Sequence record: LC739534.1
Reading direction: 5' to 3' (one strand)
Length of the DNA stretch: 64,000 nucleotides
Source: Escherichia phage phiWec181
Shown: positions 9,028-27,582 of the stretch, piece by piece
How positions within the stretch are numbered: the first letter of the stretch is position 1
Layout of the letters: the number at the start of each line of letters is the position of its first letter
Notes under the pieces: generated by a model
What the model was told of the DNA's origin: nothing
Databases searched by the model: none
What the model saw: the letters and a program-made list of their open reading frames with translations, nothing else
Program-made: the position numbers and the translations under genes

Positions 9028-9062
9028 GTGTCTATCCTCTTCCTATTGCGTTTAATGGGGCG

Positions 9063-9299: not shown

Positions 9300-9343
9300 A
9301 ATCTTTTCCTTTCTAATGTGGGGCGTTGCCGCCCCTTTGTTGA

Positions 9344-10111: not shown

Positions 10112-10125
10112 GTTGTGTCTCTCTT

Positions 10126-10230: not shown

Positions 10231-10232
10231 GA

Positions 10233-10311
10233 TGCTACCCTCATTAATGGGCGTTGCCTTATTGCCCCGCCCTACGTAATACAGTTTACCCGATTTATAA
10301 TTGTTGTCAAA
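10233..10311 (-). promoter_or_regulatory. promoter + 5'-UTR hairpin cassette (imperfect GGGCGGGGC variant)
   Basis: TTGACA, 17 nt, AAACTG, then GC hairpin, read on minus strand. Confidence 0.45.
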
Positions 10312-10581
10312 TTATTTTTTCAAGCTTGACCACTCAAAACACGGCGGGATCTCGTTAAAACTTGCACCCTGTAAAGCACATAATTTTTTAGCAATAGCCG
10401 CCGTAACCTGGCGTTGTACGCGCGGATCTGCTACTGATTGGAGAAAGTAGGCGGCTTTATATGTGATCATGCTTTCGCCTGTTTCCTTGTTAACGTGGTG
10501 CACTATTTTAGCCTTATCATCTTTAACCAGGGTGTAACCGGATTCGATGGCCTTGATTGCAACGTCCAATGATATTTTCAT
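10312..10581 (-). CDS. hypothetical protein (89 aa)
   Basis: Second in-frame ATG (10581) has GA-rich leader; ATG at 10593 abuts the hairpin. Confidence 0.5.
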   Translation of the reverse strand: MKISLDVAIKAIESGYTLVKDDKAKIVHHVNKETGESMITYKAAYFLQSVADPRVQRQVTAAIAKKLCALQGASFNEIPPCFEWSSLKK

Positions 10582-10593
10582 GATTTGTCTCAT

Positions 10594-10665
10594 CTGATAA
10601 GCGGGGCGGTTGTCGCCCCTGTAAAATGAATACTACGCGCTTATTTTGCTGTTGTCAACAACGGG
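10594..10665 (-). promoter_or_regulatory. promoter + 5'-UTR hairpin cassette (GGGGCGGTTGTCGCCCC)
   Basis: Cassette; -35 overlaps the 3' end of upstream gene. Confidence 0.5.
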
Positions 10666-10823
10666 CGAAAAAACTTTTTGATCTGGTTTGCTGTTAGGCG
10701 CATATCTGCTTTGAGCGTTGCCAGGCGATAAGCTTTACCCTTGATCAGTTTATGGTGTCCGGTGCCGTTGCCGATGATAACATCGATTTCACACAATACG
10801 CGGGAAGCATCAATCTTTTTCAT
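10641..10823 (-). CDS. hypothetical protein (60 aa)
   Basis: ATG at 10823 with AAAGGTAA RBS. Confidence 0.5.
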   Translation of the reverse strand: MKKIDASRVLCEIDVIIGNGTGHHKLIKGKAYRLATLKADMRLTANQIKKFFRPLLTTAK

Positions 10824-10905
10824 GTTGTTACCTTTCGTGTTATGGGGCGCTTGTCGCCCCCTGTCTGATAAAGATAATCCCTTTCGGGATATCTGTCAAC
10901 TATTT
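10824..10905 (-). promoter_or_regulatory. promoter + 5'-UTR hairpin cassette (GGGGCGCTTGTCGCCCC)
   Basis: TTGACA -35 and hairpin. Confidence 0.5.
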
Positions 10906-11091
10906 TTATTGTACGGTGTGGCGATCGCTGTATTCAGCGTAAAACTCACATCCATCGTCACGGCTATCAAGTTTAACGATGTACCCGCTATTCCAACGTT
11001 CAACTGATACTACCGGATAATACTTCCCGTTAAGGATATTTTTCACCAGGTCGCCTTTTACCAGTTCTTTCGTTTTCTTGTAAGTAGTCAT
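10906..11091 (-). CDS. hypothetical protein (61 aa)
   Basis: ATG at 11091 downstream of cassette (ORF-track start 11172 runs through the promoter). Confidence 0.5.
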   Translation of the reverse strand: MTTYKKTKELVKGDLVKNILNGKYYPVVSVERWNSGYIVKLDSRDDGCEFYAEYSDRHTVQ

Positions 11092-11175
11092 GATGTTTTC
11101 TCTTCTGTTTTGCGGTGGACCGTTCCGCCGCCCTATGTAATAAACTATACGCGCCAACGTTCCAGGCGTCAAGTA
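11092..11175 (-). promoter_or_regulatory. promoter + 5'-UTR hairpin cassette (GGCGGCGGAACGGTCCACCGC)
   Basis: TTGACG, 17 nt, TATAGT, hairpin, GA-rich RBS. Confidence 0.5.
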
Positions 11176-11289
11176 TATTTTTAAAATTATTTTCTACAAC
11201 GTAAAACGCCCCAGCATAAGCCAGGGCGCACTAATTAAATCAGGTAGGGGATTGCATTGCCTTACACCTTTTAGGCTGTTAGCTGGCGA

Positions 11290-11517
11290 TTAGTAGCGTA
11301 GGATGTTTACACGCTCATCCCGCCCCAAGATATCTTCATATCTGTTTCCCCTTCCTTCGTACCAGATGATCACGGTGTCAGGATCAAACGGATTGTTTTC
11401 GATAGCCGTTACCTTACAAAAATCATAAAACGGGAACGGATAAACGCCAACCTGTAAACGCGCCCGATCTCCTGGGCGAATGGTAGCGGCACGATCTGCA
11501 ATGACATTGTTATACAT
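11290..11517 (-). CDS. hypothetical protein (75 aa)
   Basis: ATG at 11517 with AAGGGG RBS. Confidence 0.5.
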   Translation of the reverse strand: MYNNVIADRAATIRPGDRARLQVGVYPFPFYDFCKVTAIENNPFDPDTVIIWYEGRGNRYEDILGRDERVNILRY

Positions 11518-11527
11518 AGTAAGCCCC

Positions 11528-11806
11528 TTAACGATTATAAACATTGTGGATGGCATCGAAAGCAAGCCGACCATAAGCCGCCAAATCGGGATTGATCCAG
11601 GCGTTATCTAACATCGTTTCAAGGACTGTGGAATCATCGTATAAAGCATCATAAAAATCTGCACGGATGATCGTTTCAATATCGTCCGGTGTTAGTTCCC
11701 TGTTAAGGTTGCAAACCGCTAAAACGTCCACCAATAATTTCCAATCTTGCAAATTAGTGGTTAATACTGTTTTCATTTCTTCGGTTGTGAGTTTAACGAT
11801 GGTCAT
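11528..11806 (-). CDS. hypothetical protein (92 aa)
   Basis: ATG at 11806; cassette upstream. Confidence 0.55.
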   Translation of the reverse strand: MTIVKLTTEEMKTVLTTNLQDWKLLVDVLAVCNLNRELTPDDIETIIRADFYDALYDDSTVLETMLDNAWINPDLAAYGRLAFDAIHNVYNR

Positions 11807-11883
11807 GATTTTATCTCTCTGTTAGGCGGGGCGCTTGTCGCCCCTATGTGATACACTTTATCAGATTGGTTGGGCTTGTCAAA
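11807..11883 (-). promoter_or_regulatory. promoter + 5'-UTR hairpin cassette (GGGGCGCTTGTCGCCCC)
   Basis: TTGACA -35 and hairpin. Confidence 0.5.
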
Positions 11884-11994
11884 CTATTTTTTCTTTTTCT
11901 TTGCTTCCAACCGTCTAAGGTTACGGCTTGACTTATTGCGCAAGGCGCTTAGATCGTCGTACCCTTTCCATGCTTGCATATCTTTCGGATTCAT
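11884..11994 (-). CDS. small basic protein (36 aa)
   Basis: ATG at 11994 with AAGGGGG RBS; K/R-rich. Confidence 0.35.
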   Translation of the reverse strand: MNPKDMQAWKGYDDLSALRNKSSRNLRRLEAKKKKK

Positions 11995-12004
11995 GTTAGC
12001 CCCC

Positions 12005-12211
12005 TTAACGCGTTGCGTAAATAATATGACTTGCCGGACTACTGCAAACCAGGTTAAGCGGCTTGCTGTTATATTGCATCTTGTCGGCTTGTTTGCTTGC
12101 TGCGATGATTCCATCTATTACACGTTGCAAACTAACCTTTACCGCCTTTTTTGCCAACCGTTGACGCTTTACCAGTGCCTGGATCTTTTTCTTGTCTGCG
12201 TTGCTTAACAT
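12005..12211 (-). CDS. basic protein (68 aa)
   Basis: ATG at 12211 with AAGGGCG RBS. Confidence 0.5.
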   Translation of the reverse strand: MLSNADKKKIQALVKRQRLAKKAVKVSLQRVIDGIIAASKQADKMQYNSKPLNLVCSSPASHIIYATR

Positions 12212-12220
12212 GGTGCGCCC

Positions 12221-12400
12221 TTACTTGTTAGCCGGATTGTATGCCAGGATCGCGCCGCTTGCTTTCACGCTTTCATCTTCATAGTTGCGCAGATCGTTTT
12301 CTGTAAGATTGAGCGCGATCACTTCCTCGATCTCAATGCCAGTGGCAAGGGCGATCTCTTTAATGATGTTTGATGATCTGATAACGTTTACTGTTTTCAT
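12221..12400 (-). CDS. hypothetical protein (59 aa)
   Basis: ATG at 12400 with AAGGTG RBS. Confidence 0.45.
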   Translation of the reverse strand: MKTVNVIRSSNIIKEIALATGIEIEEVIALNLTENDLRNYEDESVKASGAILAYNPANK

Positions 12401-12410
12401 GGTGTGCACC

Positions 12411-12530
12411 TTATAAGATGATTGATAAGATAGTGATAACGAAAGCGATAACACCAACGGCGATCGTAGTCTTACGCCCTTCGGATACTGCCGGATTCTC
12501 TACCGTGTATTCTACTGTGTATTTGTTCAT
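12411..12530 (-). CDS. small peptide with C-terminal transmembrane segment (39 aa)
   Basis: Below ORF-track cutoff; cassette upstream; hydrophobic C-terminus. Confidence 0.4.
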   Translation of the reverse strand: MNKYTVEYTVENPAVSEGRKTTIAVGVIAFVITILSIIL

Positions 12531-12629
12531 TGTGTTATCCTCTCGCTTGCTTTGAGAACTATTCCCGCCGCCCTATGAATTAAATATACACTATCCCAAA
12601 ATGATTGCAAGCCTTTTTCTAAATTATTT
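12531..12629 (-). promoter_or_regulatory. promoter + 5'-UTR hairpin cassette (GC hairpin variant)
   Basis: Hairpin and promoter hexamers between genes. Confidence 0.45.
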
Positions 12630-12914
12630 TTATGCAGTAAACAGACCATCATTTACAACGGCGGCGATGATCTCCCGTGCCATTGATTCAGGGAACGGGG
12701 CGCTATAGTCCTGGCTTGTCTCGTCGCTGTCTGTTACCCAATGATAAGCCAACGAGTAAAAGCCTTTACTCCCTGTTTTCAGTGAAACGATGATCACTCG
12801 GTTAAGTCCATCGGTAAACGTTGCCGTTAATGTGTTATCATCTTGCGTCATGTTGGACAAGTAAGCGGCATCATTAACCAGGGAAAACAGTAGCACCGTG
12901 TTAGCTTTAACCAT
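12630..12914 (-). CDS. hypothetical protein (94 aa)
   Basis: ATG at 12914 with GAGGATC RBS; ORF-track start at 12944 is an ATG inside the cassette hairpin. Confidence 0.5.
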   Translation of the reverse strand: MVKANTVLLFSLVNDAAYLSNMTQDDNTLTATFTDGLNRVIIVSLKTGSKGFYSLAYHWVTDSDETSQDYSAPFPESMAREIIAAVVNDGLFTA

Positions 12915-12944
12915 GATTTGATCCTCAAACGGGCGCGGCACCAT

Positions 12945-13015
12945 TGCCGCCCTACGTAATACACTTTACCTTATTTCTTCCAAAAAGCAAGTTTATTTGC
13001 AATTGGTGACAAATA
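12945..13015 (-). promoter_or_regulatory. promoter + 5'-UTR hairpin cassette (GCGGCACCATTGCCGC)
   Basis: -35 TTGCTT lies inside the last codons of upstream gene. Confidence 0.5.
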
Positions 13016-13171
13016 ACGTTTACCCGCGTAAAACAGTACAGCGACACTAACCACGGCGGCGATCTCATGCATAGCCGACGGGAAACGAGTATCATAATAA
13101 GATCCAATAATAGCAATAGCGGCAACGGCTGCAACGTCGATAATGATTTTTTCTTGTTTTGCGGTGATCAT
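12971..13171 (-). CDS. small membrane protein (66 aa)
   Basis: Two hydrophobic segments; ATG at 13171. Confidence 0.55.
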   Translation of the reverse strand: MITAKQEKIIIDVAAVAAIAIIGSYYDTRFPSAMHEIAAVVSVAVLFYAGKRYLSPIANKLAFWKK

Positions 13172-13259
13172 AATATTTACCTTTTTGTATGGTGGGGGGA
13201 ACTATTCCCCGCCCTGATGTAATACAGTTTAACAGATCCGGTTATAGTGTCAACCACTT
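13172..13259 (-). promoter_or_regulatory. promoter + 5'-UTR hairpin cassette (GGGGGGAACTATTCCCCGCC)
   Basis: TTGACA -35 and hairpin. Confidence 0.5.
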
Positions 13260-13445
13260 TTAAAGATATTTTATACTGATAACATTTTCCGGTTTAACCT
13301 GGTTGTGATAAGCATCAATGTAAATCAAACCATCGTTAGAAACGCCCAGGATCACGCCTTGCGCAATAAAACCGTATCGGTCGCGGTAACGTGCCGCCAC
13401 TTTGTTCGCTGCGTTGTAGGCTGTTTTAATCTCGTTTAAGGTCAT
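13260..13445 (-). CDS. hypothetical protein (61 aa)
   Basis: ATG at 13445 with GAGAGG RBS. Confidence 0.5.
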   Translation of the reverse strand: MTLNEIKTAYNAANKVAARYRDRYGFIAQGVILGVSNDGLIYIDAYHNQVKPENVISIKYL

Positions 13446-13469
13446 GTGCTGTTATCCTCTCGTTAGATA

Positions 13470-13500
13470 TAAGAAAGGGCGCTATTTGCGCCCTTGATTT
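13470..13500 (-). terminator. candidate intrinsic terminator (GGGCGC-N5-GCGCCC)
   Basis: Hairpin 13476-13494 followed on minus strand by TTTCTT. Confidence 0.45.
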
Positions 13501-13503
13501 GTT

Positions 13504-13650
13504 TTAGTCTTCCAGGTCCATCCATGCACGTTTCTCGGTGCGGTCGCGCTTAGTTTTGTTGCGCTTGTCGCCCTTGCGGATCACTTCTTCATTCCACGCT
13601 GCGCGTGTTTTAGAAGATTGGATTTTTTCGGCGCGATTAGATGTATTCAT
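13504..13650 (-). CDS. small basic protein (48 aa)
   Basis: Below ORF-track cutoff; ATG at 13650 with cassette upstream; K/R-rich. Confidence 0.4.
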   Translation of the reverse strand: MNTSNRAEKIQSSKTRAAWNEEVIRKGDKRNKTKRDRTEKRAWMDLED

Positions 13651-13748
13651 GATGTTTCCTCTTTTTAGTTGTGAGCGGCACCATTGCCGCCCTACGTGTT
13701 TTAATTTACTTTATTGTTTGATGCCTGTCAACTACTTTTAAAAACTTT
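13651..13748 (-). promoter_or_regulatory. promoter + 5'-UTR hairpin cassette (GCGGCACCATTGCCGC)
   Basis: TTGACA -35 and hairpin. Confidence 0.5.
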
Positions 13749-14102
13749 TTATTCGTGGGAAAGTGTAAGGATCACACCTGCAATATATAACCAATAGTTT
13801 TCCCTTTCTTTCTGGATCTTGTTTTCGCTACTACGCTCGTTAATGTACCCCCAGGATGTTAACAACCGATCTACTTCCCAATACTCGAAAGCTATATTAA
13901 TATTTGACGGTAAACCTTGTAACCATGATGCTATTGCTCTGATAATGTTATGATCGTAACGTTTTTGATTATCGGTGTACCAATATTCAGATTTAAAACA
14001 GCGCATCAATTCCGCGATCTTCTCTTTCTCTTCTGTGATGCCATACTCGCTATAATCAATTGAGGCCAGAATATAAAGTTTAATTGCATTTTGTGCTTTC
14101 AT
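13749..14102 (-). CDS. hypothetical protein (117 aa)
   Basis: ATG at 14102; cassette upstream. Confidence 0.6.
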   Translation of the reverse strand: MKAQNAIKLYILASIDYSEYGITEEKEKIAELMRCFKSEYWYTDNQKRYDHNIIRAIASWLQGLPSNINIAFEYWEVDRLLTSWGYINERSSENKIQKERENYWLYIAGVILTLSHE

Positions 14103-14179
14103 GGTGTCTCTCTTCTGTTGTGAGCGGCACCATTGCCGCCCTATGTGTTACATCTTACCGGATTTTTAAAACTTGTCAA
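14103..14179 (-). promoter_or_regulatory. promoter + 5'-UTR hairpin cassette (GCGGCA-CCAT-TGCCGC)
   Basis: -35 TTGACA (+ strand tgtcaa 14174-14179), 16 nt, -10 TAAGAT (14152-14157), hairpin 14124-14139. Confidence 0.6.
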
Positions 14180-14402
14180 TCATTTTTCTACTATCATTTG
14201 ATAACCTGTTTCAAGGTTAGTAAACACCGTGATCCCGTCCTGGCGTTCACTCATAAGCAAGCAAGGCGCTAACATCCTTCCTACTTCCTTGCACTCGTTA
14301 TAAGCGGCGGTAATGTCTCCCGCTGCTTTGTCTTCTGTGGTGAATGTATCGTTTACGTAAACTTTACCAGCGACAACGGCGACAATAGCAAAAGTGATCA
14401 TG
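14180..14402 (-). CDS. hypothetical protein (74 aa)
   Basis: ATG at 14402 with AAGAGGAAAAC RBS (ORF-track start 14473 judged over-extended). Confidence 0.5.
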
Positions 14403-14479
14403 ATGTTTTCCTCTTTGTGTTTTTCGTTTTGATTAGTTGATAATACAGCAATTCGCAGATTAGTCTTTAGCAATTCATG

Positions 14480-14698
14480 CTATTTACTCACAACAGTATC
14501 GAAAACAAATTTTTCTTTGTTGTCGAAGCTAACATATCCGATTCGACCACGCAAGCCGCCAGTAGTGCCGTATTCGTAACCATCAAGGCCTTTAACCTTC
14601 CAATCCGTACCCATTAAAACCGCATTATATTTCTGACCAACTACAAACGCGCCACCAGTTGATTCAATGCAAACAACTTTAATTTTACGGATTGCCAT
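14480..14698 (-). CDS. hypothetical protein (72 aa)
   Basis: ATG at 14698; promoter TTGACT-TATAAT with hairpin upstream. Confidence 0.5.
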   Translation of the reverse strand: MAIRKIKVVCIESTGGAFVVGQKYNAVLMGTDWKVKGLDGYEYGTTGGLRGRIGYVSFDNKEKFVFDTVVSK

Positions 14699-14776
14699 TT
14701 TCTTTCTCTCTTTGTGGTGATTGGTTTCTCTTCTCTATAGCGCCCATTATAAGGCGCTATAACGAAAAGTCAACGA

Positions 14777-14944
14777 TTATTTTTTACGGCTTAAGGTGCC
14801 CAAGTTATCAGCGTGACGCAGACCAGGGAAGATCCAAGCGCCGGATTCATCTTTTACAGGTGCCTTAACACTTGCGCCCAGGTTGGCGGCGTTAACTTTA
14901 CGTGCTACGTTGCGAGCGGCTTCACGGGTAGTAAAAGTAATCAT
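14777..14944 (-). CDS. small basic protein (55 aa)
   Basis: Below ORF-track cutoff; ATG at 14944 with GAGAAGAGGAAAAC leader; cassette upstream. Confidence 0.45.
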   Translation of the reverse strand: MITFTTREAARNVARKVNAANLGASVKAPVKDESGAWIFPGLRHADNLGTLSRKK

Positions 14945-15016
14945 GATGTTTTCCTCTTCTCTTTGTTAGGCGGTGGACCATTCCGCCGCCTTGATGTAAT
15001 ACAGTTTACTCTATTT
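14945..15016 (-). promoter_or_regulatory. promoter + 5'-UTR hairpin cassette (GGCGGCGGAATGGTCCACCGCC)
   Basis: TTGCAA, 16 nt, TAAACT, hairpin. Confidence 0.5.
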
Positions 15017-15175
15017 TTATTTCTTTGCAACTACTTTTATATTTTCTTTCTTTGCCTCTTCCACCTGGTCCGCCCACTGCTTACCCCACGTTTGAGCGTT
15101 ATAGTGATATTGACAAAGAGCAACACCACGTTTTAAACCAGCGATAGACTTTTTACCACATTGACAAGTTTTCAT
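15017..15175 (-). CDS. small Cys-containing protein (52 aa, possible zinc-binding)
   Basis: Below ORF-track cutoff; translation MKTCQCGKK...LCQYHY has spaced Cys/His. Confidence 0.4.
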   Translation of the reverse strand: MKTCQCGKKSIAGLKRGVALCQYHYNAQTWGKQWADQVEEAKKENIKVVAKK

Positions 15176-15186
15176 TTTGTGATCCC

Positions 15187-15399
15187 TTAGTTGATGATAG
15201 TCAGTGTAAAATTATAATCACCATTCTTATATAACACCATATTACCGAAGGTGCCGACTCGACGCATATCCATACGGATACCTATAACATCTTTAACGTC
15301 TTTAATGTTTTTAACGCCCGTGATATCTTTATTAAAATATTCCTCGTCTGAAAATAAAACTTGACTTGCATTTTTTAACAGTGTGCGGATATTAGCCAT
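15187..15399 (-). CDS. hypothetical protein (70 aa)
   Basis: ATG at 15399; cassette upstream. Confidence 0.5.
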   Translation of the reverse strand: MANIRTLLKNASQVLFSDEEYFNKDITGVKNIKDVKDVIGIRMDMRRVGTFGNMVLYKNGDYNFTLTIIN

Positions 15400-15488
15400 C
15401 GTGATAATCTCTCTTCTGTTGTGAGCGGCACCATTGCCGCCCTACGTAATACAGTTTACTCTTTTTCTTTCCGGTGTCAACAATCTTT
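15400..15488 (-). promoter_or_regulatory. promoter + 5'-UTR hairpin cassette (GCGGCACCATTGCCGC)
   Basis: TTGACA -35 and hairpin. Confidence 0.5.
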
Positions 15489-15716
15489 TTAGATTAATTC
15501 GTCCAGGCATAACAGGCGATCAACGTTGAGATCGGTCAGGCTGATGGTTGGCACCTGATAAGATTCGATGTACTCGACGCTTGCATATTCCCCAAAGTTA
15601 GCAATAGCCCACTTATTCAAGATCTCACATACATCATTAATCTTTTTGTTTGTTACAACTGCAATAACCTGGGAAGTGCCAACGGTGCCGGATACGCGAA
15701 CAATATTGATAGCCAT
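15489..15716 (-). CDS. hypothetical protein (75 aa)
   Basis: ATG at 15716; cassette upstream. Confidence 0.5.
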   Translation of the reverse strand: MAINIVRVSGTVGTSQVIAVVTNKKINDVCEILNKWAIANFGEYASVEYIESYQVPTISLTDLNVDRLLCLDELI

Positions 15717-15795
15717 GATTTTTCTCTCTTCTGTTAGGCGGGGCGCTTGTCGCCCCTATGTGATACATCTTACACTAATTTAAAACTTTGTCAAA
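15717..15795 (-). promoter_or_regulatory. promoter + 5'-UTR hairpin cassette (GGGGCGCTTGTCGCCCC)
   Basis: TTGACA, 16 nt, TAAGAT, hairpin, AGAAGAGAG RBS. Confidence 0.55.
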
Positions 15796-15889
15796 TTATT
15801 TTCTATTTCTTCCGTAATAGCCCAATTTATGATCTAAGCTAAAACGTTTTGTGAGATAGGTCGAACGATGTTTCATTTTTATGTCTCCT

Positions 15890-16129
15890 TTACATTCCAA
15901 CCATAGCGGCGCGGATCGCGGTAGTGCTATACTTGAAACCGTCTGGAGTTTTATCTTGTCCAGTCTGTTCCAGAAAGAGCATCATATCACGCGCCGCATC
16001 GTTACGGTTAGAATTATAACTAATAAATTCTTTCGCGGTGCGGTATAATGATTCATCGTTATTAATCCAAAGGCTTACATTCCAATGAGTTTTGTTTTTG
16101 TGACCTAAGAACATTTTTGATTTAGCCAT
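15890..16129 (-). CDS. hypothetical protein (79 aa)
   Basis: ATG at 16129; cassette upstream. Confidence 0.5.
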   Translation of the reverse strand: MAKSKMFLGHKNKTHWNVSLWINNDESLYRTAKEFISYNSNRNDAARDMMLFLEQTGQDKTPDGFKYSTTAIRAAMVGM

Positions 16130-16218
16130 GATGTTAATCTCTTTTTCAGTGAGGCGGGAACTATTCCCGCGCCCTATGTAATACAGTTTACTCTTTTTAT
16201 TCGTGCTGTCAATGCTTT
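16130..16218 (-). promoter_or_regulatory. promoter + 5'-UTR hairpin cassette (GCGGGAACTATTCCCGC)
   Basis: TTGACA -35 and hairpin. Confidence 0.5.
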
Positions 16219-16572
16219 TTATAAATCTTTTTTACGTTTTACATCGCTTGCATGACTGTATACAGCGATCCCATTATCACGACAAAAACGGGTAAGGTAT
16301 GATCCGCGTGAAAACTCTTTCCCTTCCAGGTCAACAACCTTGCTAAATTCTTCCAGGGCAACGGTATCAAAATGATCACCATAACCATATTGAAACGGCA
16401 CGTTAACAACTTCAATCAATTTACCGCCGATCTCAACGTCCACGCTTAAAGAAAAATATGTGTTACCGTAGGACTGTTGAAACCAGCGACGGGCGCTAAT
16501 GTGAACGGCTTCAATCTCACCAATTTTAAATTGAGTGTTACCCAGGATCGCAACGTTGATATTTTTAGCCAT
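16219..16572 (-). CDS. hypothetical protein (117 aa)
   Basis: ATG at 16572; cassette upstream. Confidence 0.55.
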   Translation of the reverse strand: MAKNINVAILGNTQFKIGEIEAVHISARRWFQQSYGNTYFSLSVDVEIGGKLIEVVNVPFQYGYGDHFDTVALEEFSKVVDLEGKEFSRGSYLTRFCRDNGIAVYSHASDVKRKKDL

Positions 16573-16668
16573 GATTTTTTCTCTCTTTTTGGTTAGTGGG
16601 AAGTGTTCCCGATAAAAGTTATTATGCTTATACTATCGTTTTTTGTCAATAGTATAAGACTAAAACTT
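16573..16668 (-). promoter_or_regulatory. promoter + 5'-UTR hairpin cassette (GGGAACACTTCCC variant)
   Basis: TTGACA -35 and divergent hairpin sequence. Confidence 0.45.
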
Positions 16669-16848
16669 TTAACGATAATCATCGTAGGCTTTATTAACCT
16701 GGCGAATATAACATTCGAAAGCGAGATCAATAGAATCATATTCCCGCACATAATCCCCGTAAGAAACTACATACACACCTTTTTGATCCTCAAACGTCAT
16801 GATGATAGAATCCAGGCCGATGATTTCAGTTTTAGCGATGATAGTCAT
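16669..16848 (-). CDS. hypothetical protein (59 aa)
   Basis: Below ORF-track cutoff; ATG at 16848; cassette upstream. Confidence 0.45.
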   Translation of the reverse strand: MTIIAKTEIIGLDSIIMTFEDQKGVYVVSYGDYVREYDSIDLAFECYIRQVNKAYDDYR

Positions 16849-16936
16849 AATAATAACCTTTTTATTGTTGGCGGCACCATTGCCGCCCTACGTGATAAAC
16901 TATACCAGAATTTTAAACAGTGTCAAACGTTTTTTC
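16849..16936 (-). promoter_or_regulatory. promoter + 5'-UTR hairpin cassette (GGCGGCACCATTGCCGCC)
   Basis: TTGACA -35 and hairpin. Confidence 0.5.
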
Positions 16937-17182
16937 TTAGTTTGCGAAATATGGCGCGGCGGCTGATGCCGTTAATCTCCAAGTGATTTGGCTATCGATC
17001 AAGTATTCTTCATTCTTGATCCGCACGGTATCAATCGAGAAGTTACTGAAAGGCTTGCTCTTGATTTTACGAACAACCGTTACACGACGGTTATTTTTCA
17101 TCTCTTTTAACTGAATCCAGGCGTAACCTTTTTCATTGACAAATATTTCATTGTGATTGGTGATAGATGATAAGTGTTTCAT
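16937..17182 (-). CDS. hypothetical protein (81 aa)
   Basis: ATG at 17182; cassette upstream. Confidence 0.5.
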   Translation of the reverse strand: MKHLSSITNHNEIFVNEKGYAWIQLKEMKNNRRVTVVRKIKSKPFSNFSIDTVRIKNEEYLIDSQITWRLTASAAAPYFAN

Positions 17183-17273
17183 GATTTTTCTCTCTTCTGT
17201 TTTGAGCGGTGGACCATTCCGCCGCCCTATGTGTTACATCTTACTACTTTTTTAAACATTGTCAAGGATATTT
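17183..17273 (-). promoter_or_regulatory. promoter + 5'-UTR hairpin cassette (GGCGGCGGAATGGTCCACCGC)
   Basis: TTGACA -35 and hairpin. Confidence 0.5.
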
Positions 17274-17555
17274 TTAACTATATGATCCACATCGTTCGCA
17301 GTAGTGATCATCGTCGTCATCTGCTACCTGGCTGATAAAATGATCTACCTTTGCTTTCAAATTATTATAATTGCTTTCTACTTCCTGTAGTCGTCGTTGG
17401 TAGTATTCCAGGGCTTGCACATAGGCCATTTGTTCGGTTTTAGCTTGCATAGCTAAATTCATGCCACGCGTTTCATCGTATAACCAATAACCATCATTAC
17501 ATTCACTAATAGATAGTGTAGGGCTTAGTTTTTCGTGACGGATAACCTTGCTCAT
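17274..17555 (-). CDS. hypothetical protein (93 aa) with C-terminal CxxC
   Basis: ATG at 17555 with AAGGGGCAC RBS. Confidence 0.5.
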   Translation of the reverse strand: MSKVIRHEKLSPTLSISECNDGYWLYDETRGMNLAMQAKTEQMAYVQALEYYQRRLQEVESNYNNLKAKVDHFISQVADDDDDHYCERCGSYS

Positions 17556-17565
17556 AGTGTGCCCC

Positions 17566-17676
17566 TTACTTCAAAATGATTGTTGTGATAACTGCTACGG
17601 TGATCCAGAATGGAACAACTAAGATAATAGCGTTAATCGTTCCAACTGTCAAACTATTTTCTTTCTTGATCATCAT
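17566..17676 (-). CDS. small hydrophobic peptide (36 aa)
   Basis: ATG at 17676 with AAGGAAAAC RBS; hydrophobic translation; the 77-aa ORF-track call starts inside the cassette hairpin. Confidence 0.4.
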   Translation of the reverse strand: MMIKKENSLTVGTINAIILVVPFWITVAVITTIILK

Positions 17677-17683
17677 GTTTTCC

Positions 17684-17767
17684 TTACAGTGTCCAAAGAA
17701 TGATTTCAAGTGCAGCACGGAAACCAGGAATAAAATTGATTGCAAAAAACAGGGAAGTAGTAAACAT
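17684..17767 (-). CDS. small hydrophobic peptide (27 aa)
   Basis: ATG at 17767 directly downstream of cassette; hydrophobic. Confidence 0.3.
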   Translation of the reverse strand: MFTTSLFFAINFIPGFRAALEIILWTL

Positions 17768-17772
17768 TTTTC

Positions 17773-17841
17773 TATCCTTTCAGTTGTGAGCGGCACCATT
17801 GCCGCCTGATGAGTTAACTATAAGGGATCACGTTTTACCTG
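17773..17841 (-). promoter_or_regulatory. promoter + 5'-UTR hairpin cassette (GCGGCACCATTGCCGC)
   Basis: TTGACA -35 and hairpin. Confidence 0.5.
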
Positions 17842-18399
17842 TCAACCTAAATCATCAAAATAAAGATAATTTTTTTCGGCTTCTTTCTTCTCTTCCTGTG
17901 ATGCCTCAAAGACTGGGAGAAAGTGATCAAAGGCGACGCACTCAACCGCTTGATCGTCTTCCTCTTCCTGGTCTTCCTCCTGGGCTATGGCTGCAATTTT
18001 GGCTAATTTCCTTTCAGCCTGGATCAGCTTACCATCTAAAACGCTTTTAGCGGTGCTGTACGCCGTCCAAGTGATGCGCTTACTTTCCAGCGCGGCATCA
18101 AGCGCCGCTATCTTGCTGGGGTATTCATCCAGGACACGAAAAGCCGGATCTACCTTGTACAGCGGATTATCTTTCGCGCCGTCGCTATCATCTGCGGCGC
18201 TTGCAATGTCAGCGTTACCATTCGCCAGCCAACCAGGGCGATCGCTGCGTGTTTTGGTATTCCCATGACTACGCGCCGATCTGTTGCCTACTTGCTCGCC
18301 ACTATAGCCAGGAGCATGATCGATCATGTCGTCCGGTATAATGCGCGGATCATTAACGTCATGTTTTACCCAGGACTGGATCACATATTCGCGCCCCAT
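17842..18399 (-). CDS. hypothetical protein (185 aa) with acidic C-terminus
   Basis: ATG at 18399 with AAAGGGGTG RBS; no cassette of its own, so likely in operon with two genes upstream. Confidence 0.6.
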   Translation of the reverse strand: MGREYVIQSWVKHDVNDPRIIPDDMIDHAPGYSGEQVGNRSARSHGNTKTRSDRPGWLANGNADIASAADDSDGAKDNPLYKVDPAFRVLDEYPSKIAALDAALESKRITWTAYSTAKSVLDGKLIQAERKLAKIAAIAQEEDQEEEDDQAVECVAFDHFLPVFEASQEEKKEAEKNYLYFDDLG

Positions 18400-18659
18400 T
18401 ATACACCCCTTTTAACAATCATTTCACACACAAGAAATAAGCTGGCGGAATCACGGCAAGGATAGAAAGATGTACGATAATCTCTCACCCCTGCTTTTAT
18501 GATCTCCGTGGTTTTACCTGATAGCACATTGTAAATAGTGTAACTTGTCGGACTGTTTTTATATACCTTGCCAGGGTAGATCATAACATAACGAGCAAGG
18601 TTATAAAATTCCTCGTTACGAAAGGCTATGATCTTCCCGCATACCTTAAGAAAGTGCAC
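18399..18659 (-). CDS. hypothetical protein (86 aa)
   Basis: GTG start at 18659 with AAGGGGG RBS. Confidence 0.45.
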   Translation of the reverse strand: MHFLKVCGKIIAFRNEEFYNLARYVMIYPGKVYKNSPTSYTIYNVLSGKTTEIIKAGVRDYRTSFYPCRDSASLFLVCEMIVKRGV

Positions 18660-18669
18660 GTTAGCCCCC

Positions 18670-18942
18670 TTACAGCAAAAAGTTTACTTGTCTTGCTGTT
18701 AATGTAGTATCAACCATTTTCGGGCTTTTATAATTGACAAAACGCGCGGTTTTTTCAATAGCGAAGCCGAGATAATCTTGTTTGTTGAAATTACATTCTT
18801 TCTTAAATGTTTCCCGTGCAATGGCGATCGCTGCGTCCAGGGATAAACGCCCGTCAATATTGATATTTGCGAAAGATCCGCCACCGCTCATAGGTTTACC
18901 AGTGGTGCCCGTTACGATCATTGTTGCGCTATATGATGCCAT
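18670..18942 (-). CDS. hypothetical protein (90 aa)
   Basis: ATG at 18942 directly downstream of cassette. Confidence 0.5.
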   Translation of the reverse strand: MASYSATMIVTGTTGKPMSGGGSFANINIDGRLSLDAAIAIARETFKKECNFNKQDYLGFAIEKTARFVNYKSPKMVDTTLTARQVNFLL

Positions 18943-19032
18943 GATGATAATCTCTCTTAGTTGTGAGCGGTGGACCATTCCGCCGCTCTACGTGATACAT
19001 CTTATCAGGTTGTTGCCTGTTGTCAATACTTT
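18943..19032 (-). promoter_or_regulatory. promoter + 5'-UTR hairpin cassette (GCGGTGGACCATTCCGCCGC)
   Basis: TTGACA -35 and hairpin. Confidence 0.5.
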
Positions 19033-19230
19033 TTATTCAAGCCCTACGATATGTAAGACACGGCGATTAGCAATAGCGTGCTGGTCTTCTGTTATAACGC
19101 CCATTTCTACCAGTGAATCAAGAAAGGAAAGCACCGTGATATATTCGTCATCGGGTACACTCATTTCATTAGTACCGTTTACCACTACGTTGATTTGTCC
19201 TGCTTTCGCTACAATGTGCAATGTTGCCAT
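19033..19230 (-). CDS. hypothetical protein (65 aa)
   Basis: ATG at 19230 with GGAG RBS. Confidence 0.5.
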   Translation of the reverse strand: MATLHIVAKAGQINVVVNGTNEMSVPDDEYITVLSFLDSLVEMGVITEDQHAIANRRVLHIVGLE

Positions 19231-19774: not shown

Positions 19775-19802
19775 TGACAAGCCCAGGGATCGGGCTTATA
19801 CT
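19775..19802 (+). promoter_or_regulatory. near-consensus sigma70 promoter (TTGACA, 16 nt, TATACT) with no downstream ORF
   Basis: Hexamers read directly; no plus-strand ORF over 30 aa for the next 6 kb. Confidence 0.55.
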
Positions 19803-20029
19803 GTTTTACATACAGAAGAGGAAGCGCCACCCCACGGCGTAAAGGCGGGGCTAACATACCAGGGGCACTGGTTGGAAGGTCGATCGCCGGGAGGCTGGGC
19901 GCTATATATTTGTAAAGAAATGTAAAGATAAAATAATCGCTTGCTTTCCTGGCTGGATCTGTTATTCTTATTACATGGCGAGGGGACACGGGAGCGCGAG
20001 ACAATCACCGGACCTGCCCGTCATTCTGC

Positions 20030-20150
20030 AAATGAGAAAAATTCTCATTTGCAAATAAGACTCATTCGCATTTAATAATTGAATGAGAATCATTCTCATT
20101 CTCATTCGTATTTCGATTTTAAGTGAGAATAATTCTCATTTCGGTAATTT
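20030..20150. repeat. three palindromic TGAGAAT-N-ATTCTCA sites (operator-like)
   Basis: TGAGAAAAATTCTCA, ATGAGAATCATTCTCAT, GTGAGAATAATTCTCAT read directly. Confidence 0.6.
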
Positions 20151-20591: not shown

Positions 20592-21119
20592 TTATGGTAT
20601 TTTGGCTGGGAACAGGATTTTAATCAGATTGTTGTGGTATTGTCCTAAAAGATTCTGCCCTTTCCAGTTGGCAGGATTAAGCACCCCTGGTTCGTACATA
20701 CCCATTCCAATTCCGTAAACCTTATCATAAGGACTCGCCTCAACGAACGTTTTGAATTGGTACAGTCGCAAGTCAGAATAAAGATCAGGGTTCTGTGTAT
20801 ACTTCAAGCATAAGCCTCGCATTACGATACGCTCTCGGTACTCTTCCCACATGTCATTATTAAAACCAGACACCGCTCGACCCATGCGCTTGTAGTATGC
20901 CTGTCCCTTCTCGTCGTCACGCTTCATTGAGTGATCAAGGATAGCTGCTGCGATTACCTGATCCTTGAACAGCAAAGCCTTACGCCACATCATGTATTGC
21001 TCTACACAACAGAAAGTTTCATTGTACCCTGGTTCCGTCTCTGTGAATGGTGCAATGTACCAATTGCTAAACACATCTTTATGTGAAAAGAAGAATACAT
21101 ATTCATTAGTTATTCGCAT
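20592..21119 (-). CDS. NADAR/YbiA-like domain protein (175 aa)
   Basis: Translation shows FFxxxxxFSNW, CxEQxMMxxKA and VEASPxDxVYGIG with NLLG, matching the YbiA/NADAR pattern as I recall it. Confidence 0.6.
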   Translation of the reverse strand: MRITNEYVFFFSHKDVFSNWYIAPFTETEPGYNETFCCVEQYMMWRKALLFKDQVIAAAILDHSMKRDDEKGQAYYKRMGRAVSGFNNDMWEEYRERIVMRGLCLKYTQNPDLYSDLRLYQFKTFVEASPYDKVYGIGMGMYEPGVLNPANWKGQNLLGQYHNNLIKILFPAKIP

Positions 21120-21330: not shown

Positions 21331-21673
21331 AAACTGCGTCTGCGTCGATGAGTTTGTGTTTGTTGTTCCGCATGTAGTCTAAGATAAGTAGACGTTTATT
21401 GTATCTGGAGAGATTATGACCCTCTTTTCCGCCATAGTCAAAATATTTTGCAAGACTTTTACACTCAAACAAAATCAGTTCGGGAGTTTCTTCACATTGG
21501 TCTGTCTGGTACACTTGACGGATGATCATGTATACGTCATCGTCTTCCGCTAAGTGCTCTACTGGTCCACACCCAGCAGGAATAAATTCATAGTCCCATC
21601 GAATCAGATGTTTCTCTACTGCTTCAAAGAAATCCATTTTTTCGCTACGCATGATCTGAACATCAATTAACAT
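21308..21673 (-). CDS. hypothetical protein (121 aa)
   Basis: ORF, operon context. Confidence 0.55.
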   Translation of the reverse strand: MLIDVQIMRSEKMDFFEAVEKHLIRWDYEFIPAGCGPVEHLAEDDDVYMIIRQVYQTDQCEETPELILFECKSLAKYFDYGGKEGHNLSRYNKRLLILDYMRNNKHKLIDADAVYGYWWMD

Positions 21674-22679
21674 AATTTTCCTCCTGTCTCATTATTCCAC
21701 CTGCTTGGTTGATAGCACTTAAGACAACAGCCAAATCCTCACGCAGGAAGGTTTCACTATGACCGTCTTTCATGTGCAACGCTTCCACACAGCCGATAGA
21801 CGGTAGGATCTGATCAGTCTTAGATTTTAGCTTACTCTCTAACGCCCTGCAAGCCTGGTAGGACGGCAGATCAAACAATGCTACACGTTGCATAAAGTAG
21901 TTATTATTTGCATTCTGAATCTTCAAACGTATATCACTATCCTTTGCAATCCCCAGCTTGAAAGCTCCCGTATCTTCTCCATACTCATCAAGGATAACGT
22001 TGATGTAAAATTCTTGCTGTGATCTGCCTTTACATTCAGAACAACCATTCCCACTTAGATACTTATTAGGTGTTATCGTTTGTTCTCCGTGCTCACTACA
22101 TAAATATTTAAACTTAGACATGGTTCCCACCTTACCAACGAACCCTATAAACTGGTCCCCTCGTTCCTGGCAAGCTTCAGTCATACGGAAAATCCATTGC
22201 GCAGGAGTGTAACGATGGTTTTTAGAACAACGGCAAGCAAGCAGCCCATCTCTAAGACTGCTCCTCGTTACTTCAAACCTACCGTTACACACGCCAGCCT
22301 TTACATATTCGTCATGAGAACATACGGAACACTTAACTATCCAATAAGCCGCCCATCCTTTACTATCTAATCTATCACTACGATAATACTCACGCGGAAC
22401 GTTATCAGGACACGCTTTGTTAAAGGTTGTGATATGGATTGAATCATCAATTAAACATGTTTGCCTTATTGCTTCCACCCTACAACCTTTACAACCACTT
22501 CCTATTTTAGCATTATCTATAGAAGTTGTTCTCCATTCCCCATGTATAGAACATTCACAGGTTAGTTTAGTGCGTGCCCCCTTCCATTCACCATGCCACC
22601 CCGTAATGGTCCACGGTTTATCCTGGTAAGCTTGTTCTATTTCTTCCTGATATTCCTCCCAACTTTTAGCCCTCATCAT
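21663..22679 (-). CDS. zinc-ribbon repeat protein with C-terminal T5orf172/GIY-YIG-like domain (338 aa)
   Basis: Multiple CxxC/CxC pairs; C-terminal FKLGIAKDSDIRLKIQ...KDGHSETF shared with paralog 26247-27200. Confidence 0.55.
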   Translation of the reverse strand: MMRAKSWEEYQEEIEQAYQDKPWTITGWHGEWKGARTKLTCECSIHGEWRTTSIDNAKIGSGCKGCRVEAIRQTCLIDDSIHITTFNKACPDNVPREYYRSDRLDSKGWAAYWIVKCSVCSHDEYVKAGVCNGRFEVTRSSLRDGLLACRCSKNHRYTPAQWIFRMTEACQERGDQFIGFVGKVGTMSKFKYLCSEHGEQTITPNKYLSGNGCSECKGRSQQEFYINVILDEYGEDTGAFKLGIAKDSDIRLKIQNANNNYFMQRVALFDLPSYQACRALESKLKSKTDQILPSIGCVEALHMKDGHSETFLREDLAVVLSAINQAGGIMRQEENYVN

Positions 22680-22689: not shown

Positions 22690-22716
22690 ACAAATGCCCC
22701 TTGCGGGGCATCTTTA
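22690..22716 (-). terminator. intergenic hairpin (attenuator/terminator-like)
   Basis: ATGCCCC-TTGC-GGGGCAT stem-loop between genes; modest U tract. Confidence 0.35.
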
Positions 22717-23856
22717 TTAGAACACGCTACTTAAGGTTGCAGATCGTGTAGTGGTTGGTTCCAGAACCACACGGAACGTATCCCCAGGTTTATCGCTCAC
22801 TACTACAATCTTACCACCTTCGATCAGGTCACACTTCAAACCTTCGGCAGTAGCTTTCAGGTCGATGCGTGGATCGCCATCATCATCCAGGATAACGTAG
22901 CTGCTATCTTCGAGAGGCTCCAGTTCTTCGTCTTTCACGGCTTCCAGGTAGATGTTCAGTTCACATGCACCAGACAAGAACTTGGTAGGAGTGAACTCAT
23001 GCCAGTTGTTGACCCAGTTAGGCTTGATAGCTTTACCGTTGACAACAATAGAGCTAATCGTCCAGCGTGCATCGTTACCCAGAGAGATACCCATCATCTC
23101 CAGACAGGTCTTGAACGTCATTTTCGGATAGAAGTTTAACTCTTCTACGATCCCTTGAATAACATCGAAAGACAGTTCAGTGCTAACATCCCACAAACGT
23201 TGGAAGCTTTCAACATGTTTGCGATTCTTCAGATTCTTGTCCAGGTAGTCCAGCATAGTTTCAATAGACAGTTTGTCGTAGTTGAAGCTATAGAAGATAC
23301 GGCTCGGACGGTTGACGAAGTATTCCGAGATGTATCCGCTGTTCTTTGTCAGCATGAACAGTTTGTTACCGCTACCTGTGCCATCCAGCAGAGTCAGCAG
23401 TGCTTCCTGATCTTCCTTCTTGGAATACACTTTGTCGAACTCATCGAACAGTACTACTGCGCGTTCAGAGATCTTACTCATGAACTCCAGGAAATTGGCA
23501 TCAGAATATGGCTGCGTTACCAGAATAGTTGGGATTCCCAGGTCTTCCGCTTCCAACAGAGTGTTACTGATCAGTTTTGCCAGCATTGTCTTGCCACTGC
23601 CTTTTGTACCCGACAACAGGACACCTGTGTTCTTACCTTCTTTACTACGACGAGCGAAGGTACGGATAACGTGGGCTGCACGTTCTTTGGTTTCCCCGTA
23701 CAGGCGATCAGGAATCGTGAACTTATCAGCGCGACTAAGAGAATAGTTACCATGTGGATCACAATTGACAGTCCAAACGCCAGCGGGGAGTTTATCAACC
23801 TCTACACCAAAATCTTTATTAACAATTGCAACATCCCCATAAACTGTGTATTTCAT
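22717..23856 (-). CDS. AAA+ family ATPase (379 aa)
   Basis: Walker A GTKGSGKT and Walker B VVLFDEFD in translation; RBS AGAAGAGGAGAAAG. Confidence 0.7.
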   Translation of the reverse strand: MKYTVYGDVAIVNKDFGVEVDKLPAGVWTVNCDPHGNYSLSRADKFTIPDRLYGETKERAAHVIRTFARRSKEGKNTGVLLSGTKGSGKTMLAKLISNTLLEAEDLGIPTILVTQPYSDANFLEFMSKISERAVVLFDEFDKVYSKKEDQEALLTLLDGTGSGNKLFMLTKNSGYISEYFVNRPSRIFYSFNYDKLSIETMLDYLDKNLKNRKHVESFQRLWDVSTELSFDVIQGIVEELNFYPKMTFKTCLEMMGISLGNDARWTISSIVVNGKAIKPNWVNNWHEFTPTKFLSGACELNIYLEAVKDEELEPLEDSSYVILDDDGDPRIDLKATAEGLKCDLIEGGKIVVVSDKPGDTFRVVLEPTTTRSATLSSVF

Positions 23857-23881
23857 TTACTTTCTCCTCTTCTGTTGGAAT

Positions 23882-23916
23882 AGACGTATTATCTCTTGTC
23901 TAATACGTCTTGTCAA
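23882..23916 (-). promoter_or_regulatory. promoter (TTGACA, 17 nt, GATAAT) overlapped by perfect 10 bp inverted repeat AGACGTATTA/TAATACGTCT
   Basis: Read directly; the IR spans the spacer and -10. Confidence 0.55.
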
Positions 23917-23924
23917 TACTTGTT

Positions 23925-24284
23925 TTAGATCCCTTCGCCTTTAGTGATGATAGCTTCCATCACCACAGCTTTCTTCTTACGTTGAACATCTTGACGGATC
24001 AGGAGGCTACCACCTTGATCATCCTTATACTGCTTCATGATGATGAAGTTGTTGCCACACACAGCGCCGATAGCCACGTATGGGCGATTAGAATTATCCA
24101 CATCCGCAGATGGGGTTACATCCGTGCAAGTAAAGAACTTGCCATCAGGATCAGTATAAGCAAAGTGGCCTTTAGCAGTTACTGCAACTTCTCCGGTGCT
24201 TGTGGACTGTGCAGCCACAAACGGTGCAGCAGATGCTACGAAACTTGCAGACAGCAGGGCTACAGCTAAAATAATCTTTTTCAT
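23925..24284 (-). CDS. secreted protein (119 aa, signal peptide)
   Basis: N-terminus MKKIILAVALLSASFVASA. Confidence 0.6.
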   Translation of the reverse strand: MKKIILAVALLSASFVASAAPFVAAQSTSTGEVAVTAKGHFAYTDPDGKFFTCTDVTPSADVDNSNRPYVAIGAVCGNNFIIMKQYKDDQGGSLLIRQDVQRKKKAVVMEAIITKGEGI

Positions 24285-26152: not shown

Positions 26153-26187
26153 GGTGTAGATTACGTGAGCACAAAGGGGTTGTCAAC
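26153..26187 (-). promoter_or_regulatory. sigma70-like promoter (TTGACA, 17 nt, TAATCT) for minus operon
   Basis: Read on minus strand; -35 is one arm of TTGTCAA-N7-TTGACAA inverted repeat. Confidence 0.5.
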
Positions 26188-26193
26188 TACTTA

Positions 26194-26222
26194 TTGACAA
26201 AAATTTCTAAACGTTGTAAATT
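26194..26222 (+). promoter_or_regulatory. sigma70-like promoter (TTGACA, 17 nt, TAAATT) for plus block
   Basis: Read directly; back-to-back with the minus promoter. Confidence 0.55.
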
Positions 26223-26246: not shown

Positions 26247-27200
26247 ATGAAATACGAAGATTTTAAACAAATAGTTAAAGACGATGTGGTATTTGAGAAC
26301 TTACAGGAAGGTTGTGAAGTCTTAGGTTGGACAGAAAGAGATAGAAACTTTGCAAAAATATACGTAATACGTTGTAGTGTTTGTGCCAAAGACCCCGAAA
26401 TGTATGGAGATGGTCTTTTTACAGCTACAAAAGGGCGTTTAGTGAAAGGTCAGAAATGTTGCGCGTGCGCTGTATCCTTTAAATACAGTCAAAACCAACA
26501 CCTAATTCTGCTAAACAGGCATTTAAGTGTCGCAGGGTACAGCATAGTTTCTATTGGTGCTTGGGAGTGTTCTAAGACGAGAATAGAGTTTAGTTGTGAG
26601 AATGGACACACGAAGAACAGAACCCTGGCTCAAGCAAAGGTAGTAGAACCTTGTAAACAGTGTCTTGAAGAAGGCTGTACAAAACACAAACAAGATGAGG
26701 CAGAGGCAAAAATTATGAAGATAATAGAAGATAAATGTTTACCTTATGTATTTGTAGGGTGGGATACTTCTTACAAGAATGTAACTTCAAAATTCAACCT
26801 CATCTGTTCGGATCACGGTTTAAAAACAATAAGATACGCTTGTTTCCTAAATGGTCATTTTTGTAACGAGTGTTCTGGTAGAAATTGCCTAAGTCTTTAT
26901 TTATTAGGAGTTTATGATAGAGACTTGTTGGTAGGTTTAAAATTTGGCATCTCTCAGAGTCCAGTAAGAAGGGTTCAACAGTTAAATAAAAGGAACTTAT
27001 TTAAATGTAAAATACTACAGATTTGGACTTTTACATCACATGATCAAGCTGTACGGATGGAAACATTATTAAAGAACACATTGCGAACTGGAATATTTAC
27101 TAAAAGAGAGATGAAAGATGGTCATACAGAAACCACAGAAGTTACTAATTTAGAAACCATAATGGACCTTATGACCTCATCTCATGGATTGGTTAGTTAA
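26247..27200 (+). CDS. zinc-ribbon repeat protein with C-terminal T5orf172/GIY-YIG-like domain (317 aa)
   Basis: RBS AAGGAGGAAAC; Cys pairs; LKFGISQSPVRRVQQL...KDGHTETT, paralog of 21663-22679. Confidence 0.6.
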   Translation: MKYEDFKQIVKDDVVFENLQEGCEVLGWTERDRNFAKIYVIRCSVCAKDPEMYGDGLFTATKGRLVKGQKCCACAVSFKYSQNQHLILLNRHLSVAGYSIVSIGAWECSKTRIEFSCENGHTKNRTLAQAKVVEPCKQCLEEGCTKHKQDEAEAKIMKIIEDKCLPYVFVGWDTSYKNVTSKFNLICSDHGLKTIRYACFLNGHFCNECSGRNCLSLYLLGVYDRDLLVGLKFGISQSPVRRVQQLNKRNLFKCKILQIWTFTSHDQAVRMETLLKNTLRTGIFTKREMKDGHTETTEVTNLETIMDLMTSSHGLVS

Positions 27201-27495: not shown

Positions 27496-27554
27496 TGTTC
27501 ACCTCTCTTAATAATGTAGGGCTATTGTACACTAAAAATATTTCAGGTCAAGTG

Positions 27555-27582
27555 TTGACAAGCTTTTTGGTTCTGTTATGAT
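27555..27582 (+). promoter_or_regulatory. sigma70-like promoter (TTGACA, 16 nt, TATGAT)
   Basis: Read directly upstream of 27613. Confidence 0.55.

Follow-up and report, generated by a model that had tools for sequence, protein, structure and literature searches.

Here we report that a perfect 10-bp inverted repeat in Escherichia phage phiWec181 lies within the promoter of an AAA ATPase gene, and that its location there is non-random. We propose, with a probability of about 0.4, that the palindrome acts as a PeSL-like hairpin, formed only in read-through RNA and helping to insulate a new ATPase transcription unit. The analysis covers a 64,000-nucleotide stretch of sequence record LC739534.1, referred to here as the window. 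PeSLs (promoter-early stem-loops) have been described in the T4-like phages RB49/phi1, PST and nt-1 (PMC2839356; PMC4122927). Their plan combines an AT-rich stretch holding a stop codon with a sigma-70 promoter, a stem-loop and an SD with its start codon (PMC2839356), and the position of the stem-loop defines five subclasses (PMC2839356; PMC4122927). Termination of upstream transcription has been proposed for PeSLs and demonstrated for one of them, and insertions and deletions of small genes are mediated by these elements (PMC2839356; PMC4122927). Judged by analogy, the composite promoter/stem-loop element of phiWec181 is a further case of this already known type. All of the hallmarks of a PeSL that can be read at the sequence level are present: a promoter, an overlapping stem-loop, an upstream stop codon, an SD and start codon, a repeated family of related elements and a link to insertion and deletion.

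The palindrome occupies positions 23882-23910, with the plan AGACGTATTA-N9-TAATACGTCT. On the plus strand AGACGTATTA covers 23882-23891, the spacer TCTCTTGTC covers 23892-23900 and TAATACGTCT covers 23901-23910. The perfect 10-bp arms and nine-nucleotide centre reported by the initial annotation were borne out by reading the arms directly. That annotation had placed the feature at 23882-23916; the start stands, while the repeat itself ends at 23910 and the longer interval also takes in a -35 hexamer. On the sense (minus) strand the 5′ arm, AGACGTATTA (23901..23910), directly adjoins this hexamer and occupies the spacer's first 10 nt. It is followed by the loop GACAAGAGA (23892..23900), whose final two bases also open the -10 hexamer, and then by the 3′ arm TAATACGTCT (23882..23891), which comprises the TAAT of the -10 and the six nucleotides running down to about -1. 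The dyad thus spans about -29 to -1 relative to the predicted start of transcription, and the description of the repeat as covering the spacer and -10 of the ATPase promoter holds. All stem pairs are Watson-Crick with neither G.U pairs nor bulges, the stem is AT-rich (three of its 10 pairs are G-C) and the loop measures 9 nt. The computed energy of the RNA hairpin is -11.2 kcal/mol (z = -2.4), and the tail after the stem is AUUCCAAC, an AUUCC sequence and no U-tract.

The promoter is made of a -35 hexamer TTGACA (23911..23916, minus strand) and a -10 hexamer GATAAT (23888..23893, minus strand) separated by a 17-nt spacer. With 11 of the 12 sigma-70 consensus positions, TTGACA-17-GATAAT has the joint top score within 19-30 kb, and the earlier proposal of a promoter reading into the ATPase gene is thereby upheld as a consensus-grade match. 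This promoter-like site lies 32 nt upstream of the ATPase gene; from its sequence, promoter activity is expected and transcription is predicted to start near A 23881. The SD GAGGAG follows at 23869-23864 (minus strand) and the ATG at 23856. On the other side, the stop codon TAA of the preceding gene lies at 23927-23925, within TAAAACAAGTA. The minus strand from this stop to the ATPase start therefore reads TAA(stop)-AACAAGTA-TTGACA-AGACGTATTA-GACAAGA-GATAAT-ACGTCT-ATTCCAACAGAAGAGGAGAAAGTAA-ATG. We refer to the 68 bp of intergenic DNA at 23857..23924 (minus strand), which hold the promoter, the stem-loop and the SD, as the cassette.

The genes around the site all lie on the minus strand. The ATPase gene (22717..23856) matches PF00004 (E=3.5e-9) and phrog_2376 (E=6e-109). 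The upstream gene (23925..24284, minus strand), the last of its operon, encodes a 119-aa protein of phrog_5474 with an apparent N-terminal signal sequence recognised by eye. A candidate promoter for this upstream operon, TTGACA-17-TAATCT, is found near 26186, and from there to the repeat the terminator scan gave no terminator-like site on the minus strand. Two pairs of divergent promoters stand back to back nearby, at 26181-26222 and 27524-27582, with their -35 hexamers 7 nt and 4 nt apart; these -35 pairs themselves form short palindromes (TTGTCAA...TTGACAA and GGTCAAGTGTTGACA).

Downstream, a strong intrinsic terminator, ATGCCCC-GCAA-GGGGCAT then TTTGTTGT (22694..22711, minus strand), lies 5 nt past the ATPase stop codons, and the homologous site in phage Schickermooser is an annotated terminator. 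Because of this terminator the ATPase gene looks like a transcription unit of its own. The next gene begins at ATG 22679, just 15 nt further, and its position behind the terminator means that it depends on read-through. A NADAR-domain gene is found at 20592-21119 (minus strand; Pfam E=1e-33). NADAR enzymes reverse ADP-ribosylation of guanine, and the phage protein may counter DarT-type host defence. The initial annotation had joined the ATPase and NADAR genes in one operon. This label is inaccurate, since the 22694-22711 terminator separates the ATPase gene from the CapR-domain and NADAR genes, and it is also contradicted by the promoter cassette, a clade-specific insertion between genes that overlap in other genera.

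From this arrangement the following mechanism can be proposed. The cassette would be a composite early promoter/stem-loop unit, with the palindrome as its stem-loop module, inserted in the 'Wecvirus' lineage between two formerly translationally coupled genes. Host sigma-70 RNA polymerase would initiate immediately beyond the repeat, at about 23881, and ATPase mRNA made from its own promoter would therefore lack the hairpin. Both arms would be transcribed by polymerases coming in from the upstream operon, launched near 26186. With the predicted start lying past the repeat, the hairpin would be transcribed only in such read-through RNA, where it would fold as a 10-bp stem 14 nt past the upstream stop codon. 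There, by pausing or attenuating transcription, by protecting the 3′ end, or by both, it could define where the upstream unit ends. ATPase expression would be set mainly by its own promoter, and the unit would be closed by the 22694-22711 terminator. The effect of the hairpin on read-through RNA is drawn from the analogy with PeSLs. Efficient termination by this stem is doubtful because it is AT-rich and followed by no U-tract, and the same kind of features argue that any attenuation of upstream transcription is weak at most. An intrinsic terminator in the strict sense was considered and is made unlikely by the three G-C pairs in 10 and the missing U-tract; the site is also unlisted in the terminator scan.

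The Wec phages are lytic myoviruses of about 154 kb belonging to the Stephanstirmvirinae, for which the genus "Wecvirus" has recently been proposed; promoters, terminators and repeats go unmentioned in the paper that describes them (PMC12695924). The window is 100 % identical to phiWec186 (LC739535.1) when read across the ends of that record, and the region around the cassette is also identical to phiWec179. Window positions ~26521-26668 map to LC739535.1 in a way that makes its first and last 148 nt the same sequence, present as a single copy in the window; an assembly overlap or a terminal repeat in the database record is the probable cause. Copies of the cassette were sought in a phage database at blastn sensitivity (five records), in IMG/VR with the ATPase protein as query (one identical cassette, the remaining relatives having none) and in JGI metagenomes with the upstream protein as query (one identical copy). 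The 68-bp cassette was found only in phiWec179, phiWec186, phiWec188, phiWec190, PsgM04F, one IMG/VR genome and one metagenome contig. 'Pseudomonas phage PsgM04F' (OR584014.1) is 93-95 % identical across the region, cassette included; its assignment to a Pseudomonas host looks odd for a Stephanstirmvirinae coliphage lineage.

Outside this lineage the two genes are joined. In Phapecoctavirus proper (ukendt, ZCKP1 and Schickermooser) the TAATG at the end of the upstream gene overlaps the ATPase start, with no intergenic region and no promoter between the two genes. Across the sequenced Phapecoctavirus and Justusliebigvirus relatives the genes overlap or are almost contiguous, and relatives at 66-67 % identity have a short SD spacer only. 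These comparisons indicate that the 68-bp cassette is a lineage-specific insertion. From the -35 to the end of the SD, palindrome included, the sequence is identical in 8/8 copies; what little variation there is falls immediately 5′ of the -35 and in the SD-to-ATG interval. Every copy recovered in the search for diverged versions across the phage database, IMG/VR and JGI metagenomes carried the identical repeat. The carrier lineage is shallow (93-100 % identity), and the invariance of the palindrome is therefore no proof of constraint and leaves no room for a covariation test.

Is the palindrome more than a chance occurrence? With loops of up to 20 nt, the whole 64-kb window holds five loci with a perfect inverted repeat of at least 10 bp, compared with 1.33 +/- 1.1 in Markov-1 shuffles. 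At least one such repeat occurred in 73 % of the shuffles, so the repeat taken alone is unremarkable; five occurred in none. Its placement is another matter. We took the 30 strong SD-linked promoters and shuffled everything save the two hexamers. Two promoter cores contain a 10-bp inverted repeat against 0.01 expected per set of 30 promoters, and repeats of at least 9 bp occur in three of the 30 cores against 0.053 expected, with 0/300 simulations reaching two. The three promoter palindromes of at least 9 bp differ from one another in sequence and position.

The studied cassette belongs with a larger family. At least 18 near-identical cassettes precede small ORFan genes in the window: 17 are on the minus strand at 7.9-19.0 kb (7864-19040), and one is on the plus strand at 42383 (42369-42461). 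Their plan is an A-rich leader, TTGACA, 16-17 nt, a -10, AC(G/A)TAG (~6 nt), a GC-rich hairpin, CACAACAGAAGAGAGA and ATG. The GC hairpins vary in sequence (GGGCGGCAATGGTGCCGCC, GGGGCGACAAGCGCCCC and other variants). The cassette before the ATPase gene has the family's 5′ module AAGTATTGACAA and its 3′ module CAACAGAAGAG followed by GAGGAG; it lacks the GC hairpin, and its middle is unique. Allowing one mismatch, CAACAGAAGAG has 12 matches in the window against 1.4 expected. A search of the genome for a paralogue spanning the whole cassette gave none; the 5′ and 3′ modules alone are shared. RNAalifold predicted no pairs for the 18 canonical cassettes, because the MAFFT alignment left their length-variable hairpins out of register, and the hairpins described here are those of single-sequence folds. 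A PeSL-like cassette family in Stephanstirmvirinae was not found described in the literature searched. Elsewhere in the window, at 62730-62769, the hairpin AAAAGGGAACC-N6-GGTTCCCTTTT is followed by TTATTA and is likely a bidirectional or intrinsic terminator.

Beyond these canonical cassettes, at least six further promoters carry promoter-overlapping stems, every one different in sequence. At 7119 (window 7100-7125) ATCCCCT-attgac-AGGGGAT lies over the -35, and at 16649 (window 16615-16670) CTTATACTAT-N12-ATAGTATAAG lies over the -35 and spacer. The promoters at 10899 (window 10880-10899) and 19774 (window 19779-19797) have hairpins in their spacers, and at 14773 (window 14728-14769) the stem TATAGCGCC-ttataatg-GGCGCTATA brackets the -10. 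Two more come from phiWec179: L009:14779 (14750-14779), where ACACCCTC-TTTG-GAGGGTGT then TATTGTTTGT occupies the spacer and forms a textbook terminator inside a promoter, its U-tract being the -10 region; and L009:9628 (9600-9628), with a stem around the -10.

Comparison between genomes reveals how some of these stems change. Three genera share the 16649 stem, which has two haplotypes, CTTATACTAT/ATAGTATAAG and CTTGTGCTAT/ATAGTACAAG, and four variants of the loop. In phiWec188, outra and Campylobacter phage C3 it has undergone an A-T to G-C double change plus an A-T to G.U change, and the G.U pairs in sense-strand RNA only. In phiWec188 a T-A to A-T swap preserves the pairing of the 14773 stem, even though the -35 and -10 have both decayed in that genome (TTAGCC; no TATAAT). 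The 10899 promoter and its hairpin are deleted as a module in phiWec188. The compensatory changes in the 16649 and 14773 stems amount to one event per element; the sibling stems are suggestive of structure, not of protein-specific sequence.

The alternative favoured by the initial annotation is an operator: a dimeric DNA-binding protein of phage or host would bind the 10-bp half-sites, block RNA polymerase and so time expression of the ATPase gene. The geometry fits, as the dyad is perfectly Watson-Crick with no G.U pairs and is placed non-randomly in a consensus-grade promoter, at ~-29 to -1, a classic position for steric repression; the promoter-to-SD stretch is also invariant in the eight copies while its flanks vary. 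The search for a regulon speaks against it. Half-sites with at most one mismatch number five in the window against 3.9 expected, sites with up to two mismatches show nothing above chance in the window, and no second inverted pair occurs in the window or in the remaining ~90 kb of the near-identical phiWec179, so that the ~154 kb of phage sequence holds no second copy or near-copy. The half-site and the palindrome thus do not recur, and no regulon is indicated. Nor did the 20 flanking ORFs, which made up the screen for a cognate protein, give any DNA-binding match in Pfam; for most of them Pfam gave nothing of any kind. From centre to centre the half-sites are separated by 19 bp, and such spacing is unusual for helix-turn-helix dimers. 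The exact palindrome, with a spacer of 3-15 nt, has 28 matches in 185,579 bacterial genomes, none of them in Enterobacteria and the whole at about the level estimated for chance, and BLAST gave no match in 5,426 E. coli genomes at its sensitivity. The sibling promoter palindromes each differ in sequence and register, which fits structure better than a set of private repressors, and two of them retain pairing through compensatory or G.U changes, one after loss of its hexamers. The reading of the site as timed repression is thus not supported, and we regard an operator as unlikely. Slightly less probable is its evolutionary extension, in which a lytic Stephanstirmvirinae phage acquired with the 68-bp insertion a repressor-controlled promoter that uncoupled and timed the AAA ATPase gene. 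In a sharper version the repeat may serve twice, as a DNA operator and as a hairpin in read-through RNA.

Several specific candidates were set aside. Resemblance to a Fur box (GATAAT) and to a T7 promoter (TAATACG), noticed by eye, fails beyond 6-7 nt. The MetJ operator consists of tandem 8-bp met boxes with the consensus AGACGTCT. The outer 8 nt of the arms (AGACGTAT and ATACGTCT) match this consensus at 7/8 positions, but the intervening 8-mers do not match, and the boxes begin 21 nt apart instead of forming a contiguous 8-bp tandem; MetJ was rejected. In two IMG/VR contigs these arms form ordinary terminator-type hairpins, and as the contigs are unrelated we take this to be coincidence. Rfam 15 gave no gathering-score match in the whole window and, in 23700-24100, only noise (E at least 0.4) with nothing on the repeat.

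The repeat could also have no function of its own, being a by-product such as a quasi-palindrome perfected by template switching or a sequence carried along with the cassette, and kept only on account of the youth and general constraint of the promoter region. An inverted repeat of 10 bp is ordinary at the scale of the window (73 % of shuffles), the eight copies represent one shallow lineage whose invariance carries little weight, and the hairpin is weak and without a U-tract. Against this stand the chance of ~0.01 that a 10-bp repeat falls in the core of one of 30 promoters, the strong enrichment of the class as a whole, and the conservation of sibling elements across three genera with compensatory change. 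We judge both this origin and this explanation for the persistence of the repeat to be rather unlikely. A role at the DNA level, with the palindrome or cassette as a crossover or cleavage point for PeSL-type mini-circles or homing-endonuclease-like genes, is very improbable. It would agree with the status of the cassette as an indel relative to other genera, with PeSL crossovers mapped in or beside the stem-loop (PMC2839356) and with variably present CapR/GIY-YIG-like endonuclease genes at 21663-22679 and 26247-27200. However, no gene-content breakpoint falls at the palindrome among the sequenced Wecvirus genomes, the flanking genes being collinear in all; the endonuclease-like genes are 1.2-2.3 kb distant; and phiWec188, which has neither of them, carries an identical repeat.

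These endonuclease-like genes are paralogues (phrog_681; 21663-22679, minus strand, and 26247-27200, plus strand), each combining an endonuclease region with a CapR homology domain, and one of them having a weak MUG113/GIY-YIG-like match. Both are absent from phiWec188, and in other genera the length of the 21663-22679 gene varies. The pair resembles mobile genes of the homing-endonuclease type on either side of the region. Further along, at 20027-20107, a dense inverted-repeat cluster built on AATGAGAA/TTCTCATT contains 12-bp and 10-bp perfect palindromes and a 19-nt arm pair. The surrounding stretch is poor in genes and separates gene blocks of opposite orientation; the cluster could be an origin or another binding array.

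The preferred reading, a PeSL-like hairpin, draws on a resemblance that has both strengths and limits. As in PeSLs, a stop codon in A-rich DNA is followed by a strong sigma-70-type promoter, a stem-loop lying between the -35 and -10 or overlapping the -10, an SD and a start codon; such cassettes are repeated among small ORFans and behave as insertion/deletion units between close relatives. Unlike the PeSL phages, which are Straboviridae, the phage here is a member of the Stephanstirmvirinae, and no sequence homology between the elements is established. PeSL stems are typically polyG/polyC, whereas this one is AT-rich and perfect, with a 9-nt loop and a unique sequence, and it is weaker than those GC-rich PeSL stems for which termination has been demonstrated. 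The perfect dyad over the spacer and -10 of a sigma-70 promoter also recalls tetO/TetR, LexA boxes and the lambdoid OR/OL operators. It differs from these classical operators in its lack of recurrence, in the 19 bp from centre to centre, in the want of a cognate protein among 20 flanking ORFs, in its setting in a strictly lytic large myovirus and in the diversity of the sibling promoter palindromes. Overlaps between terminators and promoters are a subject of a preprint (bioRxiv 10.64898/2026.08.19.745784). The present element is similar to an overlap of this intrinsic kind in that a hairpin ending the upstream unit would overlap the next promoter, but its stem of three G-C pairs without a following U-tract makes canonical termination unlikely.

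PeSL cassettes both regulate small early genes and serve as portable junctions for gene shuffling. If our reading is correct, the composite promoter/stem-loop design extends beyond T4-like phages and is also used in unrelated large coliphages that are under development for therapy. The ATPase locus would then illustrate how such a cassette can split two translationally coupled genes into separate transcription units. The element is small and its general importance is probably modest. It also offers a caution, as palindromes over phage promoters should not be taken for operators by default.
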